This document shows, in pieces, positions 18,571-52,774 of a DNA stretch of 64,000 nucleotides (the stretch's first letter is position 1; each line of letters starts with the position of its first letter). Source of the stretch: a virus. Lineage: Duplodnaviria > Caudoviricetes. Under the pieces are notes generated by a model. That model was not told the origin of the DNA and searched no databases. It saw only the letters and a program-made list of their open reading frames with translations. The translations under genes and the position numbers were made by a program. The stretch covers positions 128,001 to 192,000 of the IMG/VR virus record IMGVR_UViG_3300050156_000143; one strand, 5' to 3'.

Positions 18571-19767
18571 ATGTCAAAACTGTTAATCGAAGGCCGTTGG
18601 GGCGAAACTAAAGAAAGTCTGCTGGAAGGTCTGAAGGGCCAACGTCGCAACACCATGTCGGTGCTGCTTGACAACACCCGTCGCACCATGCTTGCAGAAT
18701 CTGCTGCCGGAACTACCACGAGCGGCAATATTGCGACTATCAATCGCGTACTGTTGCCCGTGATTCGTCGGGTGATGCCCACCGTGATCGCAAATGAGAT
18801 CGTTGGCGTGCAACCGATGACCTCTAATGTGGGTCAAATCAACACCATGCGTGTTCGTTATGCCAACTCACTGACTGATTCTAGCTTGACCGCCACGTCT
18901 GTTACTGCTGGTGACGAAGCACTAAGTCCGTTCAAAATTGCGCAAGCATATTCCCGTACCCCGTATGGCACGTCTACTGCCACGGGCTACACCGGCAACA
19001 GCACTGCGTCGTTTGAAGGCAATCCTGGCCGTCAAATTTCGGTCGAAGTGCTCAAGCAAATTGTGGAAGCCAAATCTCGCGCTCTCAGCGCTCGCTGGAC
19101 TTTTGAATCTGCTCAAGATGGTCAAGCCAATATGGGCATTGACATTGAAGCTGAACTCATGGCTGCTCTGGCTCAAGAAATCACTGCTGAAATCGACCAA
19201 GAGATTCTGCAATCTCTGCGTGCGCTTGCTGCTACCGAATTTACGTACAATCAAGCCACTGTGTCTGGTACTGCGACTTTTGTCGGCGATGAACACGCGG
19301 CTCTTGCTGTGCTAATCAATGCTACCGCTAACCGTATCGCTCAACGTACCCGTCGCGGCGCTGCAAACTGGGCGGTGGTTTCGCCAACTTCGCTGACCGT
19401 GTTGCAGTCCGCCACAACTAGCGCGTTTGCTCGTTCGACCGAAGGCACCTTTGAAGCCCCCACCAACACTAAGTTTGTGGGCACGTTGAATGGCGCAATG
19501 CGTATTTTCGTTGACAGCTATGCTTCTGACAGCACCCCGGTGCTGATCGGTTACAAAGGCCCGAATGAGTTTGACGCTGCTGCGTTCTATTGCCCGTACC
19601 AACCTCTGCAATCAGTTGGTGTGGTGATCGATCCTACCACGATGGAACCTGTGACGAGTTTCAAAACTCGATATGGTTACGTCGAACTGTCGAACGTGGC
19701 GTCATCGCTCGGTAACGCTGGCGACTACGTGGGCGAAGTAGCTGTGCAAAACCTGCAATTCAGCTAA
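18571..19767 (+). CDS. Major capsid protein, T4 gp23-like
   Basis: VMPTVIANEIVGVQPMT, KSRALSARWTFE.AQD, IA.RTRRGAAN, YCPY..L, KTRYG. Confidence 0.96.
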   Translation: MSKLLIEGRWGETKESLLEGLKGQRRNTMSVLLDNTRRTMLAESAAGTTTSGNIATINRVLLPVIRRVMPTVIANEIVGVQPMTSNVGQINTMRVRYANSLTDSSLTATSVTAGDEALSPFKIAQAYSRTPYGTSTATGYTGNSTASFEGNPGRQISVEVLKQIVEAKSRALSARWTFESAQDGQANMGIDIEAELMAALAQEITAEIDQEILQSLRALAATEFTYNQATVSGTATFVGDEHAALAVLINATANRIAQRTRRGAANWAVVSPTSLTVLQSATTSAFARSTEGTFEAPTNTKFVGTLNGAMRIFVDSYASDSTPVLIGYKGPNEFDAAAFYCPYQPLQSVGVVIDPTTMEPVTSFKTRYGYVELSNVASSLGNAGDYVGEVAVQNLQFS

Positions 19768-43106: not shown

Positions 43107-43183
43107 CGGAGTATAGCGCAGTTTGGTAGCGCATCTGCTTTGGGAGCAGAGGGTCGTAAGTTCGAGTCTTACTATTCCGACCA
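43107..43183 (+). tRNA. tRNA-Pro(TGG)
   Basis: Cloverleaf, CCA end; TAAATA at 43094. Confidence 0.95.
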
Positions 43184-43191
43184 GTTTGATA

Positions 43192-43267
43192 TGGAACATA
43201 GCTCAGTCGGTAGAGCAACGGACTTTTAATCCGTGGGTCATGGGTTCGATCCCCATTGTTCCAACCA
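43192..43267 (+). tRNA. tRNA-Lys(TTT)
   Basis: Cloverleaf, CCA end. Confidence 0.95.
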
Positions 43268-43274
43268 AGGTTTT

Positions 43275-43363
43275 GCGCGAGTGGTGGAATTGGTGGACAC
43301 ACTTGGTTTAAGCCCAAATGCTCTTGATTGAGCGTAAGAGTTCGAGTCTCTTCTCGCGCACCA
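43275..43363 (+). tRNA. tRNA-Leu(TAA)
   Basis: Long variable arm, CCA end. Confidence 0.93.
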
Positions 43364-43371
43364 AAATATAG

Positions 43372-43450
43372 GCTGAATTAGCTCAGTTGTTGGCAGAGCG
43401 CCAGTGCTGTAAACTGGAGGTCATCTGTTCGAGTCAGATATTCAGCACCA
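43372..43450 (+). tRNA. tRNA-Thr(TGT), non-canonical anticodon loop
   Basis: G1-C72 and C2-G71; loop GC-TGT-AA (C33 instead of U33). Confidence 0.75.
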
Positions 43451-43457
43451 ACATTCT

Positions 43458-43545
43458 GGAAACATGGGGGAGTGGTTTAACCCAACAGTCTTGAAAACTG
43501 TCAAAGAGCAATCTTTCGTGAGTTCAAATCTCACTGTTTCCGCCA
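43458..43545 (+). tRNA. tRNA-Ser(TGA)
   Basis: Long variable arm, G73, CCA end. Confidence 0.95.
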
Positions 43546-45393: not shown

Positions 45394-45473
45394 GGGTGGC
45401 AAGCCAACATGGTTGCGGCGGCGAATTCATAATTCGTGTTCATTACCCGGTTCGAGTCCGGGGCCACTCACCA
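45394..45473 (+). tRNA. tRNA with CAT anticodon (elongator Met or Ile2)
   Basis: Cloverleaf with atypical D loop and 8-nt variable region; lacks initiator features. Confidence 0.8.
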
Positions 45474-45481
45474 GAATATAT

Positions 45482-45560
45482 GCGGGTAGACAAGTGCAAA
45501 GGGCGCACAACTGATTTCCAATCAGTAGATCGCAGGGTTCGATTCCCTCTACCCGCTCCA
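45482..45560 (+). tRNA. tRNA-Gly(TCC), possible 8/4 fold
   Basis: GCG acceptor start, U73, anticodon TCC. Confidence 0.85.
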
Positions 45561-45566
45561 TGATTT

Positions 45567-45661
45567 CTGCCCTTAGTTCAATGGATAGAACAACTGCCTT
45601 CTAAGCAGCATTAGATCAAACTATGGTCAAGGTGTCGGTTCGAGTCCGGCAGGGCAGGCCA
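45567..45661 (+). tRNA. tRNA-Arg(TCT) with a 24-nt variable arm
   Basis: CT-TCT-AA loop, Arg-type D arm, extra hairpin at 45610-45633, CCA end. Confidence 0.85.
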
Positions 45662-46261: not shown

Positions 46262-46558
46262 ATGATCCATCAGTTACCAAGAGACCATCACGTAGACTTT
46301 GAACTTTCACCGTGGGAAACCACTGTGATAAACATCACTTCACAACAGTTGGAACGTGTGGCGAACTTTAGGAGAAAGTCAATGACCAAACTTCCAGATC
46401 AGATCAGGAAATGCTCGGTTGAAGTGGTTCAGTCATGGTATTCAGAATCGTTTCCAATTTGGTTCGACCATGCAATCCCAGCTTTTAGATACCGAATTGC
46501 CACCGAATCCGATATTGACCAAAATTGTGAAACGGCTATCAGTATGATGTTTAGTTAA
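46262..46558 (+). CDS. Hypothetical protein
   Basis: ORF before the late promoter. Confidence 0.55.
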   Translation: MIHQLPRDHHVDFELSPWETTVINITSQQLERVANFRRKSMTKLPDQIRKCSVEVVQSWYSESFPIWFDHAIPAFRYRIATESDIDQNCETAISMMFS

Positions 46559-46565
46559 ATACCGG

Positions 46566-47315
46566 ATGAAAGCTCGTGAGTTTATGAATGAAATGGCAGT
46601 TCCATCCGACGATTTGCGGATGAAAACTTTCTACCACGGAACCACCACTATGGAAGTCGCAGAATCCATCTGGGTCAAAGGATTGGATTCTAAGAACACC
46701 GATGTGAAATATGGCAAGAGCAACGCACATTTGCGCCCTGCGACCGGTAGAGTTTATGTTACACCCGATTTAGCATATGCAGGGATGTATGCCATAGGCG
46801 GTGATGTTTATGGATCGAAATCCCCCAGAATGACAGGGCGGACGGCTGGATACATATTAGAATTCACCGGGGATCAACTCGGGGACGTGTTGCCGGACGA
46901 GGATATGGTGGGGAACATTATCGGGGTGTACCTATCCAAATCAGGATACGGCAAACAACGCTGGCCAGAAGTGTTCACTGATGAAATTGTGTCCAAATGG
47001 GCACACTATGTTGTGACAAAGTTTTCCCCGAATACAGTTAGAAAGTTGATGGGTGGTGAGTATTCGTGGTACGCCAAGGTTGGTAAACACGTTATGGAAC
47101 GCTTACCACAAAATGATGCTATAAGATTTATCAATCTTGGCAAACACATAGCCAACGCTGGCATTATGATGCCATGCAAAATGTACCAAATTTCATTATC
47201 CGACATCCCAAACATCACACGTGATGGGAGCAACTTGCGTCAATACCTGAAATTAATCAAACGCCGAGTCACAAAACCAAAACATTTTGGAATCCAACAT
47301 CAACTACCATTGTAG
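46566..47315 (+). CDS. ADP-ribosyltransferase-like protein, putative head-packaged
   Basis: FYHGT....AESI...GL and GRVYVTPD..YA; N-terminus MKAREFMNE; TAAATA-N4-ATG. Confidence 0.75.
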   Translation: MKAREFMNEMAVPSDDLRMKTFYHGTTTMEVAESIWVKGLDSKNTDVKYGKSNAHLRPATGRVYVTPDLAYAGMYAIGGDVYGSKSPRMTGRTAGYILEFTGDQLGDVLPDEDMVGNIIGVYLSKSGYGKQRWPEVFTDEIVSKWAHYVVTKFSPNTVRKLMGGEYSWYAKVGKHVMERLPQNDAIRFINLGKHIANAGIMMPCKMYQISLSDIPNITRDGSNLRQYLKLIKRRVTKPKHFGIQHQLPL

Positions 47316-47529
47316 ACATCTCGTGAAAAACCATGAATGGACAACGTTGCCAATCTTGCAACGCAGGGTGTTTGGCATATGCGGGGCCACTGATGTGGAT
47401 GTAAAACAGTTGTGTGTTTCATACGGACTAGATTATCACTGGTCGGATATCACAGGGGTTCATCTGATGAGCTACCCATTGCCCCATCGCCCAGACATTG
47501 AATTGGCAGTAACCTTGATATTTAACTGA
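47287..47529 (+). CDS. Hypothetical protein (start uncertain)
   Basis: C-terminal DIELAVTLIF. Confidence 0.4.
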   Translation: MESNINYHCRHLVKNHEWTTLPILQRRVFGICGATDVDVKQLCVSYGLDYHWSDITGVHLMSYPLPHRPDIELAVTLIFN

Positions 47530-47624
47530 CATGAAATTTTATCAACACGTGATTAACTCGGTCAGGCGAGGTGAATGGCACATTGGTATAGAATCTCGGA
47601 AAACCTGGCCACATAAGCCGTATT

Positions 47625-48443
47625 TTGAGTTCACCCATTGTTATTACGATGGATACCACTGGTGTCTGCATCTTTGGTGGTTTTATATCGGCAAATCGTA
47701 CTATTAAAATGTATTCCAACATTCTAGACAAAATTCCGCCGTATATAGCGGCCATTGTTCCTCACCATGTACGCAATCTTGCCGCCAATTTGTCAAAACT
47801 TGGGGAATTTTGTGGGCTAAGTTTTGGCGAGCCACTCATCACACGAGTGACTACCCAAAACGGTGACTATTATACCCAGATTGAAGATCACGTTTCCCCA
47901 ACCAATCCAGTTAAATTTTGGTACGATGATGAAACGGATTATTTTCCTCAATTTGCCAAACACATCACGGAACGGATTTTGAGGCAAGTATCGGATCATG
48001 AAAAATACCCAGCTAAAGAATACTTAGGCATATATGGGCATATTATCCGTGGTGTTAACAGAATTGGGATGTCCACTAGAACACAGCATGCTTCCCATAT
48101 TATGACAAACCGGGCTGGACTATTCGTGTTGTCTCACCATCCTGATTTGAGTACATTGGAGTATCGAGGCGTGGATGAATGCACGCCAAACGACATCGTG
48201 ACTTCCAATTTTGGATCACAATCTCCTCTGTGTGGCGTTAAAGTGATCTTTAACCAATATATGCAAAATGAATACCCGGTGTTTGTTATGATGCTAAATC
48301 GTTCACCCACGTGGGCGGCGACCCTGAATATACACAAACCTCTGGATCAAATTGACGGAAAGTGGTACACGGAATATTCACTAGACTTTCCGGCATTTTG
48401 TAGAAGATACGCTCTCAATATGCTAACCATGACCGAGTGCTGA
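47625..48443 (+). CDS. Hypothetical protein (start uncertain)
   Basis: Long ORF, no motif recognised. Confidence 0.6.
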   Translation: MSSPIVITMDTTGVCIFGGFISANRTIKMYSNILDKIPPYIAAIVPHHVRNLAANLSKLGEFCGLSFGEPLITRVTTQNGDYYTQIEDHVSPTNPVKFWYDDETDYFPQFAKHITERILRQVSDHEKYPAKEYLGIYGHIIRGVNRIGMSTRTQHASHIMTNRAGLFVLSHHPDLSTLEYRGVDECTPNDIVTSNFGSQSPLCGVKVIFNQYMQNEYPVFVMMLNRSPTWAATLNIHKPLDQIDGKWYTEYSLDFPAFCRRYALNMLTMTEC

Positions 48444-48459
48444 CTGCTATAATCAGTGA

Positions 48460-49314
48460 ATGAATCACGAAAAACTCACTGATTACCTAGCAGAAGATAA
48501 GTCCACAGTTAAGACAATTGTGGGACACGATGCTGGACACGTTGTCTCCACCCGCTCTGATGTTGAGACTATTTCGTTGGCCTGTGTGCGGGAATTAATC
48601 TCTCTTCGTCGAATGATGGGGGTTCAGCCAATAACACCAACACAAGATGAAGTCTACATTCGTTCCACCCGTGCATTTTACAGTTGTGCCCCTAATATGC
48701 ACACGCACACCCTTCATCGTGAACTGTCGGATTCGCCGACGCGGGAAGTAAAACGCCTGGCATCATCACTGAAATTGACTTCGGTCACTATGCCAGCAGC
48801 AATTGCCAAGACTATTACATCCCCGGTGATTGACACTGTGTTAGAAACGATGGATCAACTCAGTAACGAACATCACATCCAGTTGGAAACGGTTCGCTCT
48901 ACCAGTCTAAGCCGATATCGTTCAGTGATCGAAGAACTTGCACACAAAGTTGACGCAAACTTCATATTGACTGACAAAGTGGGGCTATCGGTGCTCACAG
49001 ATTCCTTCAGATTTAATCCCATTGGTGGCACTCGCAAAACCCGAATTCAGCCACGTGGAAACATCAACATGGGGCCAACTGGGACATTTGCAGTTTATGT
49101 TGACACTGCTAGTGAAAATTGCGCCAATGTGCAATTCATTTTTGGCAACAAGGGGTCAGATGATTATGATGTTGGCATCGTATTCGCACCGCAAAATCTA
49201 TTCACCTTCGGATCGGATGATCTGTACTCCACTACTACCACCCGCTTCGGCATTTTGAGTAACAATGATGGTGGATATTTTAGCAAATTGTCTATTGGCA
49301 ACATTGAAACTTAA
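48460..49314 (+). CDS. Degenerate major-capsid (gp23/gp24-like) paralog 1
   Basis: MMGVQPIT ~ IVGVQPMT; VYVDT..FGNKGSDDYDVGIVFAPQ ~ IFVDS..IGYKGPNEFDAAAFYCPY; TTRFG ~ KTRYG of the window's own MCP. Confidence 0.65.
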   Translation: MNHEKLTDYLAEDKSTVKTIVGHDAGHVVSTRSDVETISLACVRELISLRRMMGVQPITPTQDEVYIRSTRAFYSCAPNMHTHTLHRELSDSPTREVKRLASSLKLTSVTMPAAIAKTITSPVIDTVLETMDQLSNEHHIQLETVRSTSLSRYRSVIEELAHKVDANFILTDKVGLSVLTDSFRFNPIGGTRKTRIQPRGNINMGPTGTFAVYVDTASENCANVQFIFGNKGSDDYDVGIVFAPQNLFTFGSDDLYSTTTTRFGILSNNDGGYFSKLSIGNIET

Positions 49315-49331
49315 CTTTAAGGAACATTTTT

Positions 49332-50021
49332 ATGGTAACGTTGGAAACACAATTAACAGCATTGTATGCAGTCCAAAACAGTGATCACGTAATGCTTTGC
49401 ACCACATACGGCACTCCTCCAGTAGGTCAGTATTCGCGGATGATTTCGCTTGAAATTGTGGTCAATCCGCCAACCGAGTGGGTTCCCGTTAGCGCAACCA
49501 CCACATTCGAGCTGTTCACTGATGCTGCAAAACTTGGTGATAAGAATACACACATCTGTCCACCAGTCCCGTTCGATACACCAGACGAAATAAACGGTTT
49601 GCGTGGCATGATTTCCCCTGACTGGACTACTGAGAATTGGTTCAAATGTCACGTGAATGTAGCGGCCAACAAAATTGCCGCAAAAAGTCGTCGTGGGGCA
49701 GGAAATGCCATGTTTGCGAACGCGCACACGTTGCGGATGTTTGGAATCATCGCGATCGATGACGGCGTGGGTTTAAAAGATGTTGGTCATCTTGATCCAA
49801 GCAACCGGGTATCATGTTACGTTGTGCCACAAGGTTGGTTAAAAGATGGTGAAGTATTGGTTGCTTACCGTGGCAACAACGTCGGCGATAACGCACTATT
49901 TCTGTATACCCGGACAGAAAATGGGATAGATGAATTTTGCGTTGTCAAAAATGAGTCATCTTCTCACACCGCGACCGCCGCTGATTATTTTGCAAAGCTG
50001 ATATTACCCATCGCCCAATGA
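49332..50021 (+). CDS. Degenerate major-capsid paralog 2 (C-terminal half)
   Basis: VNVAANKIAAKSRRGAGN ~ INATANRIAQRTRRGAAN; VLVAYRG ~ VLIGYKG. Confidence 0.7.
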   Translation: MVTLETQLTALYAVQNSDHVMLCTTYGTPPVGQYSRMISLEIVVNPPTEWVPVSATTTFELFTDAAKLGDKNTHICPPVPFDTPDEINGLRGMISPDWTTENWFKCHVNVAANKIAAKSRRGAGNAMFANAHTLRMFGIIAIDDGVGLKDVGHLDPSNRVSCYVVPQGWLKDGEVLVAYRGNNVGDNALFLYTRTENGIDEFCVVKNESSSHTATAADYFAKLILPIAQ

Positions 50022-50716
50022 GTGGTAACAATATGACAACTTTAGAAACCCAGTTAACCGGGTTATATGGTGTTGGAAATGTTTCCAAAGTAGCGCGTTG
50101 TTTACATGAATATCCGGTAGAGTTGCCCCGTTCTCCATTTTCTCCTGAAAAGGATTGGGAACCGTGTGTGATAACTAGGCAAAAGTGGGTCATGACCAGC
50201 TTGCGTGAGCCGAGTCCAACTGATTGGAAAGCTGTGACCCACGATACACCGCGTCAGTTGTTTGATAATATCGCCAATGCTGTCGAAGTGAATGTGTATG
50301 ATTGTCGAGAAGCCCCGTGGAGGCGTTTTAGTCAGCGCCTTTTACTGGAACTTTTCTTCGGCATGAAGTGGAACCCTGGTGCAACCGTGTATGCAAATGT
50401 GAAAACAATGTGCTCCATCGGGGTATCCAATGATGGCATCCCAGATACTCAAACCGTGTCTCACCTAGGGTATTCTCAGTTGTCGTACCATCATGTTGAC
50501 AAACAGTCTTGTTACTGTGTTCCAGACGATTGGTTAACAGATGGCGAAATTTTGATGACACGTAACCACCGACATGTTACCCATTACGAGAAATTCTTAT
50601 ACACCAGAATGCAAAACAATTTGGAGGAATATTGTGTGATCGAAAAGCCGCCAAATGTCTATCATCGGCCCAGACCTGATGTCCCACAGTTAATCAAACT
50701 ATTGATGCCAATTTGA
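50018..50716 (+). CDS. Paralog of the 49332 gene (more diverged)
   Basis: Shared TLETQLT.LY.V and SCY.VP..WL.DGE.L..FLYTR..N..E.CV. Confidence 0.7.
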   Translation: MSGNNMTTLETQLTGLYGVGNVSKVARCLHEYPVELPRSPFSPEKDWEPCVITRQKWVMTSLREPSPTDWKAVTHDTPRQLFDNIANAVEVNVYDCREAPWRRFSQRLLLELFFGMKWNPGATVYANVKTMCSIGVSNDGIPDTQTVSHLGYSQLSYHHVDKQSCYCVPDDWLTDGEILMTRNHRHVTHYEKFLYTRMQNNLEEYCVIEKPPNVYHRPRPDVPQLIKLLMPI

Positions 50717-50722
50717 ATACCA

Positions 50723-51073
50723 ATGTCAATGAACCTTTGCCTATATGGTGAGAGAACCATAGCATATAAAGACGGCAACCGGAAACGGCGGACGTCAAAG
50801 CAGCAAATTGAGTTTGAATGCTGGCAGACACCGACTGAGGTGAGCTATGCAATCAAATCAAGCCCAGACCCATTGGTCGCATATTCCAACTGGGTGAAAG
50901 AAAATGATTCACCCTATGAGGAGTATGATTACGCTGACGGAAATTGGTCACTCGATGAAGAACCATGCGGTAAAATCCTAGTAAGCCCGGCTGAACAGCA
51001 TCTGACTAAATTGTCTGAATGGTTGTGTTTAGCGCAAGAAGAAGGTTACGCCATCACTTGGTCGGTGCAATAA
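50723..51073 (+). CDS. Conserved hypothetical protein
   Basis: WQTPT..Y..W..HL..L.EW...EGY.I.W. Confidence 0.7.
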   Translation: MSMNLCLYGERTIAYKDGNRKRRTSKQQIEFECWQTPTEVSYAIKSSPDPLVAYSNWVKENDSPYEEYDYADGNWSLDEEPCGKILVSPAEQHLTKLSEWLCLAQEEGYAITWSVQ

Positions 51074-51076
51074 ACC

Positions 51077-51104
51077 AAAAACCCACTGGTTAGGTGGGTT
51101 TTTT
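51077..51104 (+). terminator. Intrinsic terminator
   Basis: aaaaaccca..tgggtttttt. Confidence 0.75.
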
Positions 51105-51514: not shown

Positions 51515-52774
51515 ATGGAACAAGATTACAACTTCATCGATGGCGTTCACGTTGGTATCAAAGCCTGGACTAAGGGTGTGCAAATGGAAGATGCTGCACG
51601 CCAACAATTGCTCAACATTTCATCACTGCCTTTTATCCATAGTCACATCGCGGTGATGCCCGATGTGCATTACGGTCTTGGTGCAACAATTGGCAGTGTG
51701 ATTGCCACAAAGGGCGCCATCGTTCCCGCTGCCGTGGGCGTTGATCTTGGCTGCGGTATGTTCGCACAACGCACGTCATTGGTCGCATCAGATTTGCCCG
51801 ACAACTTGCATGCCCTTCGCAGCAACATCGAGTCCAAGATTCCCCACGGTCGCACTAACAATGGCGGTCAAGGTGATCGCGGAGCGTGGCACAACGTTCC
51901 AGATGACGTTTACAAACGCTTGACTCCCAGTTTAACCGCATTGTCGGCCATCACTGAAAAACACCCCAAACTACAACGTGCGGCGCAACGTGCAGCAAAC
52001 CATTGTGGAACACTTGGTACTGGCAACCATTTTGTGGAAGTTTGCCTGGATGAGGAACAGCGTGTGTGGATCATGCTGCACTCGGGTTCACGTGGGATTG
52101 GCAACGCAATTGGCACTTATTTCATCGAACATGCTAAGAAAGATATGCAACGCTGGTTTATCAACTTGCCCGACCAAGATTTGGCATATATTCCGCAGGG
52201 TTCCGAGTTGTTTGACGACTACTGTCTGGCGTTAAAGTGGGCGCAAGATTATGCTCACATCAATCGCCAAGTCATGATGGATGCAGCGATGCGTGCTTTG
52301 ATTGAATCGGTGCCAAAACCGTTTACGTGCGACTGTGAATCGGTGCCAAAACCGTTTACGTGCGACTGTGAATCGGTCAATTGCCATCACAATTATGTGA
52401 ACTGGGAACGCCATTATGGGGAAAACGTGATGGTCACTCGTAAGGGCGCAGTCTCGGCACAGAAGGGGCAGTTTGGCATCATCCCCGGTAGCATGGGCGC
52501 AAAATCGTTCATTGTGAGTGGCAAAGGTAATCCAGAATCGTTTTGCTCATGTTCGCACGGAGCTGGGCGATCAATGTCTCGAACCGCAGCCAAAAAGAAA
52601 TTCACACTCAAAGACCACGAAATTGCCACCAATGGGGTTGAATGTCGAAAAGACGCGGACGTGATCGATGAAACCCCAATGGCGTACAAAGATATCGACG
52701 ATGTGATGAAGGCCCAAGAAAGCCTGGTGGACATCGTTCACACTTTGAAACAAATCGTGTGCGTGAAGGGGTGA
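51515..52774 (+). CDS. rtcB: RNA-splicing ligase RtcB
   Basis: MPDVH.G.GATIG, VGVDLGCG, GTLGTGNHF, LHSGSRG.G, HHNYV, RKGA, PGSMG, HGAGR, DETP.AYK. Confidence 0.96.
   Translation: MEQDYNFIDGVHVGIKAWTKGVQMEDAARQQLLNISSLPFIHSHIAVMPDVHYGLGATIGSVIATKGAIVPAAVGVDLGCGMFAQRTSLVASDLPDNLHALRSNIESKIPHGRTNNGGQGDRGAWHNVPDDVYKRLTPSLTALSAITEKHPKLQRAAQRAANHCGTLGTGNHFVEVCLDEEQRVWIMLHSGSRGIGNAIGTYFIEHAKKDMQRWFINLPDQDLAYIPQGSELFDDYCLALKWAQDYAHINRQVMMDAAMRALIESVPKPFTCDCESVPKPFTCDCESVNCHHNYVNWERHYGENVMVTRKGAVSAQKGQFGIIPGSMGAKSFIVSGKGNPESFCSCSHGAGRSMSRTAAKKKFTLKDHEIATNGVECRKDADVIDETPMAYKDIDDVMKAQESLVDIVHTLKQIVCVKG
52303..52377 (+). repeat. In-frame 33-bp tandem duplication in rtcB
   Basis: TGAATCGGTGCCAAAACCGTTTACGTGCGACTG twice, plus TGAATCGGT. 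Confidence 0.95.

Follow-up and report, generated by a model that had tools for sequence, protein, structure and literature searches.

Three shortened, predicted gp23-superfamily paralogs in the accessory region of a 277-kb phage genome

The 277-kb genome of an uncultured phage of leaf-litter origin carries, in its accessory region, three closely spaced genes (ORF1, ORF2, and ORF3) whose products are predicted to be divergent paralogs within the gp23 superfamily of major capsid proteins (MCPs), with an HK97 fold presumed from that kinship. The genes were analyzed within a window of 64,000 nucleotides that also contains the phage's own MCP gene. Judging from sequence comparison, all three are real protein-coding genes under purifying selection that have diverged past the level separating gp23 from gp24 and have lost ~115–170 residues relative to the MCP. 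The interpretation tentatively favored here, at somewhat less than an even chance, is that they are selected, non-shell members of the superfamily that, in soluble form, mimic capsid protein not yet assembled.

Organization of the locus and candidate promoters

The features of the locus are collected in Table 1. The first-pass annotation, made from the sequence alone, had described three shortened capsid-like ORFs in the accessory region, far from the head genes. Their coordinates and sizes were confirmed, each motif quoted for them is present, and both their reduced length (229–284 versus 398 aa) and their remote position, 28.7 kb downstream of the MCP gene, were borne out. The surrounding region consists of ORFans, tRNAs, and RtcB. 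All three frames are intact and closely spaced, with the start of ORF3 overlapping the stop of ORF2 (ATGA) and an AAGGA sequence located 12 nt 5' of the ORF2 ATG. Codon usage is phage-like, the in-frame bias of 0.12–0.24 bits/codon being in line with that of other phage genes, and no stop codon interrupts the three frames of 229–284 codons, though their identity to any MCP is ~22%. The last gene of the co-oriented block is a 116-aa ORFan for which searches of Pfam and PHROG gave no match; the terminator-like hairpin that starts 7 nt past its stop is a putative intrinsic terminator that probably closes the transcription unit. ORF1-3 are part of a lineage-specific accessory block that spans 46.5–51.1 kb, with the terminator at its end.

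Table 1. Features of the ORF1-3 locus and the reference MCP gene (positions are those of the window)
Feature	Position	Strand	Description
MCP (P0001), comparison reference	18571..19767	+	398 aa; Pfam Gp23 309 bits
TAAATA, nearest such element upstream of ORF1-3	46556..46561	+	5 nt 5' of ATG of the 249-aa gene at 46566
Extended -10-like motif TGCTATAAT	48445..48453	+	Read from sequence; ends 6 nt 5' of ORF1 ATG
ORF1 (P0002)	48460..49314	+	284 aa; predicted shortened gp23-superfamily paralog, collinear with MCP near full length
ORF2 (P0003)	49332..50021	+	229 aa; predicted MCP paralog centered on the A-domain
ORF3 (P0004)	50018..50716	+	232 aa; old ORF2 paralog
116-aa ORFan, final gene of co-oriented block	50723..51073	+	From ORF list
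Terminator-like hairpin AACCCAC-TGGTTAG-GTGGGTT, then T run	51080..51104	+	Palindromic, readable on both strands

Early expression had been proposed for these genes on the basis of an extended -10 motif immediately upstream of ORF1. The motif is indeed present, but its frequency is that of chance: the TGNTATAAT form of the extended -10 motif was observed 2 times against 2.13 expected, TATAAT-N6-ATG was observed once against 0.75 expected, and a sigma-70 scan of the region showed no enrichment, with 16 sites versus 25 in shuffles. If the predicted TGCTATAAT promoter is in use, the mRNA would be leaderless. Most plus-strand TAAATA sites (15 of 17) are intergenic, with several located 2–6 nt 5' of an ATG, and a TAAATA-type element also precedes the head genes. 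The upstream TAAATA listed in Table 1 is a candidate promoter that may serve a unit running through all three ORFs.

Relationship to gp23-type capsid proteins

For ORF1 and ORF2, profile comparisons show more similarity to the MCP family than chance would produce. Against the Pfam family PF07068 (Gp23), for which the curated cut-off is 24.4 bits, ORF1 scores above the cut-off at 28 bits (E 1.9e-6; 27 bits in the genome-level scan) and ORF2 below it at 13.9 bits (E 0.037); the Pfam search of ORF3 gave no match to this family. A custom clade-enriched HMM built from 25 gp23-family sequences assigns 23.8 bits to ORF2 and 20.2 bits to ORF1, compared with a maximum of 7 bits in a control of 2000 shuffles per protein, and when this HMM was applied to the 203 six-frame ORFs of at least 80 aa in the window, only the MCP, ORF1, and ORF2 scored more than 3 bits. 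In hhalign comparisons, ORF1 aligns with the MCP alignment at a probability of 89.7% (E 1.8e-6, 258 columns, residues 4–284 against MCP 34–397) and ORF2+ORF3 at 81.7% (E 1.1e-5). A PDB sequence search with ORF1 and with ORF2+ORF3 returned no match.

The conserved features of the two proteins are distributed differently along the capsid sequence. ORF1, which is 22–24% identical to 47 MCPs with 48 invariant columns, keeps its motifs in MCP order, from GVQP.T (N-arm/Gol-equivalent) through the A-domain blocks VYVD and GNKGSDDYD..FAP to the C-terminal TRFG. ORF2 carries the A-domain ANKIAAKSRRGAGN helix and the VLVAYRG strand, and its weak tblastn matches fall only on the MCPs of VAP7-type phages. 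The significant region maps to T4 gp23 residues ~353–455, and T4 gp23 residues 381, 387, and 420 belong to the A-domain, at an inter-subunit interface (PMC9546572). By alignment, ORF2 and ORF3 appear to retain chiefly this A (axial) domain, the part that makes up the capsomer core and provides contacts between subunits. Pairwise and hhalign comparison found no direct similarity between ORF1 and ORF2.

The paralogy between ORF3 and ORF2 noted in the first reading of the sequence is clear (BLASTP 1e-21), and it is only through ORF2 that ORF3 is tied to the MCP family. As a result of a 23-residue deletion, ORF3 is missing the ANKIAAKSRRGAGN helix, the best-conserved element, while the N-terminal block TLETQLT.LY is strongly conserved between the two proteins. 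Comparison of their coding sequences gives a saturated pS of 0.79, with pN of 0.28 in the N-terminal and 0.35 in the C-terminal conserved block; because synonymous change is saturated and the blocks are nonetheless conserved, ORF2 and ORF3 look like selected genes.

The earlier description of the three ORFs as degenerate copies of the phage's own MCP thus holds with respect to gp23 homology (for ORF3, by way of ORF2) but not with respect to their origin from that particular protein. Recent duplication was considered and rejected, as the pairwise scores against the own MCP, 5.8 and 7.7 bits, do not exceed those against distant MCPs; because ORF1 and ORF2 stand at the same distance from the own MCP as from any member of the gp23 family, they do not represent recent copies of it. 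In pairwise comparison, the ORFs score 4–17 bits against any MCP, whereas T4-type gp24 scores 45 bits against gp23. The MCP of the window is 62–63% identical to the MCPs of PA5oct, GAP32, and Phosso, and PA5oct, GAP32/RaK2, and Phosso-like MCPs have several motifs in common with the ORFs (GVQP, AN.IA..RRG..N, YVD, G.KG..D, and TR.G). In contrast to these jumbo-phage MCPs, however, the ORFs have neither the genomic context nor the conservation of shell genes, and they are without the region equivalent to MCP residues ~100–170.

Structure prediction yielded a low-confidence AF2 model both for ORF2 aligned with ORF3 (pLDDT 33.6) and for ORF1 with the alignment of 47 MCPs included (pLDDT 30.5). 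The ESM Atlas models have pLDDT values of 0.29–0.31, and feature and structure matches were uninformative.

Distribution among relatives and variation between strains

Searches covering 5.8 billion clusters and 1.84 billion representatives, word-based with ORF1 and ORF2 and by exhaustive phmmer with ORF1, recovered no homologue beyond the query itself. Likewise, the query alone was recovered by tblastn of ORF1 against phage genomes, and by related-locus searches with ORF1 and ORF2 in viral contigs, with ORF1 in metagenome contigs, and with the upstream 272-aa ORF in viral contigs. Among 22 viral contigs with a related RtcB, RtcB alone is common, with no ORF1-3 homologue beside it. A second full-length-like Gp23 gene is present in none of ten long relatives (MCPs 71–77% identical; one genome rated 100% complete), and PA5oct and GAP32 show no second full-length-like Gp23 match. 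Moreover, a scan of the phage genome itself found no further Gp23-like gene that could supply a vertex protein.

Small ORFs that retain conserved MCP blocks occur in the accessory regions of two genomes from this MCP clade, those of Sinorhizobium phage Phosso (XYS97433.1 region, XYS97328.1) and the IMG/VR contig G006, where they are annotated as hypothetical. These ORFs keep only the most conserved MCP blocks, in single-block frames of 72–228 aa that are not arranged in tandem, and they have no sequence similarity to ORF1-3 beyond the common MCP blocks. G006 also contains an MCP remnant with stop codons.

Variation in the locus is evident from a freshwater sister strain (X3), in which ORF1 is present, ORF2 is absent, and ORF3 is shortened. 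On the contig of this strain, the ORF2 start codon is fused in frame to the ORF3 orthologue, which is internally shortened, with at most 91 nt where the window has 313 nt. ORF2, at least, is therefore individually dispensable. Four strain differences are listed for ORF1, all at third codon positions and three of them synonymous; at the C-terminus of ORF3, by comparison, there are four non-synonymous versus three synonymous differences. From sequence, this ORF3 pattern, together with the loss of its helix, is as compatible with relaxed constraint or decay as it is with an arms race. Because ORF1-3 are ORFans, selection on them is seen only inside the lineage. A further candidate joint (X2), from 49331 to 50555, was set aside because its shorter side comprises only 25 letters.

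Possible roles of the encoded proteins

As non-shell proteins, the products of ORF1-3 would not be building blocks of the capsid. If they mimic free capsid protein in solution, itself a low-confidence guess, they would engage a partner whose usual binding site is the MCP A-domain or N-arm. A host sensor of capsid protein is one candidate for this partner; others are the capsid subunits of a competing phage or of this phage.

A rather unlikely alternative is that the three genes are functionless relics, descended from an old MCP duplication or from acquired MCP genes and now shrinking and disappearing within a fast-turnover accessory arm, with frames that remain open by chance or under weak selection. 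Decay of this type is consistent with the ORFan status of all three, the very low confidence obtained from each structure predictor, the loss of the conserved helix from ORF3, the absence of ORF2 and internal shortening of ORF3 in the sister strain, the ratio of four non-synonymous to three synonymous differences at the ORF3 C-terminus, and the occurrence of an interrupted MCP remnant in G006. It is less easily reconciled with three long stop-free frames at so low an identity to any MCP, with the low pN of the ORF2/ORF3 blocks against a saturated pS, with the third-position bias of the differences listed for ORF1, or with the normal gene spacing, ribosome-binding site, and codon bias. A role in the head of the phage itself, as a vertex pentamer like gp24 or as a specialized subunit of the capsomers, is very unlikely. 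T4 gp24 (PF07068), the head vertex protein and a paralog of gp23, resembles ORF1-3 in being an additional gp23-superfamily gene within one genome, and it approaches the MCP in size, adjoins gene 23, and shows conservation across the T4-like phages; ORF1-3, by contrast, are 115–170 residues shorter than the MCP, lie 29 kb from it and the head module, and are absent from the relatives checked. The collinearity of ORF1 with the MCP, the 45 bits obtained for the T4-type gp23/gp24 pair in the same pairwise test, the want of another Gp23-like gene for the vertex, and a nearest upstream promoter-like element of the TAAATA type found before head genes all point toward a minor head protein. Yet the absence of any such homologue from the ten long relatives, PA5oct, and GAP32 indicates that the clade builds heads without such a protein, and this absence, together with the lack of ORF2 in the sister strain, disfavors the repurposed vertex proteins that the first-pass annotation had put forward.

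Service as cargo or assembly factors, in which MCP-derived segments would carry the proteins into the prohead or allow them to tune assembly or head size with no exposure to host immunity, is quite improbable. T4-type prohead proteases cleave motifs of the L-x-E kind. In prohead-targeted internal proteins of the T4 CTS type, a site of the L/I-x-E form closes an N-terminal targeting peptide. A motif of the L-x-E kind is found in ORF1 (YLAE, residues 9–12), and LIE and LLE are found in the N-terminus of the MCP. The N-terminal block common to ORF2 and ORF3 would also suit a targeting segment, but it contains no L-x-E site, and the genes are not conserved in relatives with the same head module.

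The soluble-mimic interpretation can be extended to a broader proposal, distinctly unlikely in its full form, in which gp23-lineage jumbo phages would repeatedly convert capsid sequence into free-standing, fast-evolving accessory mimics of unassembled subunits, with the ORF1-3 cluster as an active arms-race locus. Such accessory mimics might blunt host sensors that recognize the MCP, or they might sabotage the way competing phages or satellites build their capsids; the arms-race element of this proposal draws on the strain-level change in copy number. In the literature searched, no published description of such spare capsid genes was found, and the literature on capsid decoys and on MCP paralogs in jumbo phages held no capsid-mimic anti-defense protein and no precedent. 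The locus offers three diverged versions that can be compared side by side, along with a natural strain that is without one of them. Even if the genes are inert, it would still record the duplication, shrinkage, and persistence of capsid genes within accessory arms of jumbo-phage genomes.

Capsid proteins rank high among the triggers of bacterial immunity, so that spare, non-shell versions of them are obvious candidates for immune evasion or for interference between phages. In the known Gol/Lit and CapRel SJ46 systems, however, the capsid proteins are the triggers of defense rather than decoys. A decoy of the kind suggested in the first-pass annotation would have to appear no later than the MCP and occupy a capsid sensor without switching it on. 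The Gol peptide of gp23 (Lit, EF-Tu) occupies about residues 93–122 of that protein, and the GVQP segment of ORF1 aligns with T4-type gp23 residues 111–118. The Gol region lies within the first quarter of gp23 and is the most conserved stretch of that protein (PMC3014915).

Kinship with the gp23 family

The phage is represented by an IMG/VR viral contig of 277,516 bp that has direct terminal repeats and was recovered, according to its run metadata, from a leaf-litter metagenome; the window covers bases 128001-192000 of this contig. Near-identical strains are present in further leaf-litter and freshwater runs. Its gp23-type major capsid protein (MCP) is 62-63% identical to those of the jumbo phages PA5oct and GAP32, of RaK2-like phages and of the Sinorhizobium phage Phosso, and up to 72-80% identical to metagenomic MCPs. 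The three tandem capsid-like genes of the accessory region, ORF1 to ORF3, have the coordinates and motifs reported in the first-pass annotation.

Features discussed in the text (window positions unless marked)
Feature	Position	Strand	Description
MCP	18571-19767		398 aa; Pfam Gp23, 309 bits
TAAATA, nearest upstream of ORF1	46556	+	precedes 249-aa gene
Extended -10-like motif TGCTATAAT	48445-48453	+	TATAAT ends 6 nt before ORF1 ATG
ORF1	48460-49314	+	284 aa
ORF2	49332-50021	+	229 aa
ORF3	50018-50716	+	232 aa
Terminator-like hairpin and T run	51080-51104	+	after 116-aa ORF
MCP-block pieces (IMG/VR contig G006, same MCP clade)	4724-4888, 5400-5549, 156733-156831		

Against the Pfam Gp23 model, ORF1 scores 28 bits (E 1.9e-6; cut-off 24.4 bits), ORF2 scores 13.9 bits (E 0.037) and ORF3 has no match. 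A custom gp23-family HMM was built from 25 sequences (the phage's clade, T4-type gp23 and gp24, and cyanophage, Ackermannviridae-like and other MCPs). ORF2 scores 23.8 bits and ORF1 20.2 bits on this model, with a maximum of at most 7 bits among 2000 shuffles of each protein, and among the 203 six-frame window ORFs of at least 80 aa only the MCP, ORF2 and ORF1 exceed 3 bits. In hhalign comparisons, ORF1 residues 4-284 are collinear with MCP 34-397 (258 columns, probability 89.7%, E 1.8e-6), and an ORF2+ORF3 profile aligns with MCP 92-393 (probability 81.7%, E 1.1e-5). When aligned to 47 MCPs by MAFFT, ORF1 is 22-24% identical to them, and 48 columns are invariant, including G-V-Q-P-x-T, G-x-K-G-x4-D and T-R-x-G. 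ORF3 is, as had been proposed, a clear paralog of ORF2 (BLASTP 1e-21), from which it differs by a 23-residue deletion that takes out the ANKIAAKSRRGAGN helix. No direct similarity links ORF1 to ORF2. The resemblance to the MCP family is genuine, and these comparisons show ORF1-ORF3 to be divergent gp23-superfamily paralogs.

Transfer of the alignment to T4-type gp23 numbering places the significant regions (ORF1 ~150-244, ORF2 ~98-190) at gp23 residues ~353-455. Residues 381, 387 and 420 belong to the A (axial) domain, at the subunit-subunit interface within one capsomer, and residue 455 to the P-domain sheet (PMC9546572). ORF1 is ~115 residues shorter than the MCP, mostly through loss at MCP positions ~100-170, and retains both the C-terminal TRxG block and the GVQP segment, which corresponds to gp23 111-118 in the N-terminal quarter. 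The highly conserved Gol region has been placed in the same quarter (PMC3014915).

The first-pass annotation described the genes as degenerate MCP copies, of which the kinship stands and a recent derivation from the phage's own MCP does not. In pairwise phmmer comparisons with 15 MCPs, ORF1 and ORF2 score 3-17 bits, with the phage's own MCP (5.8 and 7.7 bits) ranking no higher than remote family members, which rules out recent copying; T4-type gp24 and gp23, for comparison, score 45 bits. The genes thus arose either by an old duplication whose products diverged rapidly or by uptake from a lineage that has not been sampled.

Constraint, distribution and possible function

ORF1-ORF3 look like real genes under constraint. 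Their in-frame codon bias (0.12-0.24 bits per codon) is that of other phage genes, with the remaining two frames negative, and their spacing is operon-like: ORF1 lies 16 nt from the upstream ORF, AAGGA occurs 12 nt 5' of the ORF2 start, the end of ORF2 and the beginning of ORF3 share ATGA, and 6 nt separate ORF3 from the next ORF. Synonymous change is saturated in the ORF2-ORF3 comparison (pS 0.79), while non-synonymous differences (0.48 overall) fall to 0.28 in a conserved N-terminal block (TLETQLT.LY) and 0.35 in a C-terminal one (SCY.VP..WL.DGE.L...FLYTR), so that on this measure the two are old duplicates, both retained under protein-level constraint. The strain differences considered form a small sample (40 of 339); among these, all four in ORF1 are at third codon positions and three are synonymous, as are 13 of 18 in the downstream RtcB gene, and the seven in the ORF3 C-terminus comprise three synonymous and four non-synonymous changes. 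Neutral decay, especially of ORF3, is a serious rival reading.

The genes have a narrow distribution. Searches of 5.8 billion protein clusters gave no homologue of ORF1 or ORF2, and exhaustive phmmer of 1.84 billion representatives none of ORF1; 22 viral contigs with a related RtcB carry no such gene next to it, and the phage genome has no additional copies elsewhere. In X3, a freshwater sister-strain contig, the ORF2 start codon is followed by 22 differing letters and then, in frame, by ORF3 from 50058. The joined frame reads MTSLETCVAGLYGVGNVSKV... and gives an ORF3 orthologue immediately behind ORF1, with no ORF2 between them; at most 91 nt replace 313 nt of the window's ORF3. An assembly chimera is unlikely for this junction, seen in a single contig of depth 4.8, because the 22 letters are unique and the 5' ends of ORF2 and ORF3 have no long run of identity in common. 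These comparisons show ORF1-ORF3 to be lineage-specific and, as assembled, ORF2 to be dispensable in the sister strain.

A second full-length-like Gp23 gene is absent from ten long contigs whose MCPs are 71-77% identical (one of these contigs is rated 100% complete), and likewise from PA5oct and GAP32. Because phages of the same head type thus do without these genes, an essential vertex or shell role is disfavoured, and with it the suggestion of repurposed vertex proteins. With low confidence, we infer that ORF1-ORF3 may be soluble mimics of unassembled capsid subunits, which would use A-domain and N-arm surfaces against host sensors or in inter-phage competition; their HK97 fold and any interaction are putative. 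The published literature searched describes neither such genes nor a capsid-decoy anti-defence protein.

Small ORFs with single conserved MCP blocks also occur in accessory regions of other jumbo phages from this MCP clade. Two hypothetical ORFs of Phosso (L140:2670-3353 and L141:2427-2861), one adjoining a tRNA and the other near radical-SAM and HNH genes, retain the GVQP-type and YKG...FY.PY blocks; G006 has an 89-aa ORF with a GVQP-type block, a 72-aa ORF with a KSR..WT.E..D block, and a remnant with stop codons.

Transcription signals and the surrounding arm

The sigma70-like extended -10 proposed before ORF1 is present, and its mRNA would be leaderless. The motif occurs at chance frequency (TGNTATAAT, 2 found and 2.13 expected; TATAAT-N6-ATG, 1 and 0.75) and therefore carries no statistical weight. 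Of the 17 plus-strand TAAATA sites, 15 are intergenic, and several lie 2-6 nt before an ATG. This suggests transcription of many phage genes, head genes included, from a T4-late-like element into mRNAs with little or no leader; the sites include 2175, 7031, 14028, 34943, 37025 and 46556. Given a -10 without weight, the TAAATA at 46556 and the terminator-like hairpin, one transcription unit spanning 46556-51104 and a separate early promoter are equally plausible. The hairpin is palindromic and flanked on each side by A and T runs, as suits an intrinsic terminator on either strand, and it stands between the block of capsid paralogs and that of RtcB.

The surrounding 22-kb arm (38000-60500) consists of lineage-specific ORFans and seven tRNA genes (43107-43545, 45394-45661); of its about 60 plus-strand ORFs, only RtcB (51515-52774) has a tblastn match in the 22 related-RtcB contigs. 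RtcB itself contains a perfect 33-nt tandem duplication at 52270-52340, encoding CESVPKPFTCD twice, which is polymorphic: in the freshwater strain X3, one contig is 33 nt shorter there (joint 52302 to 52336).
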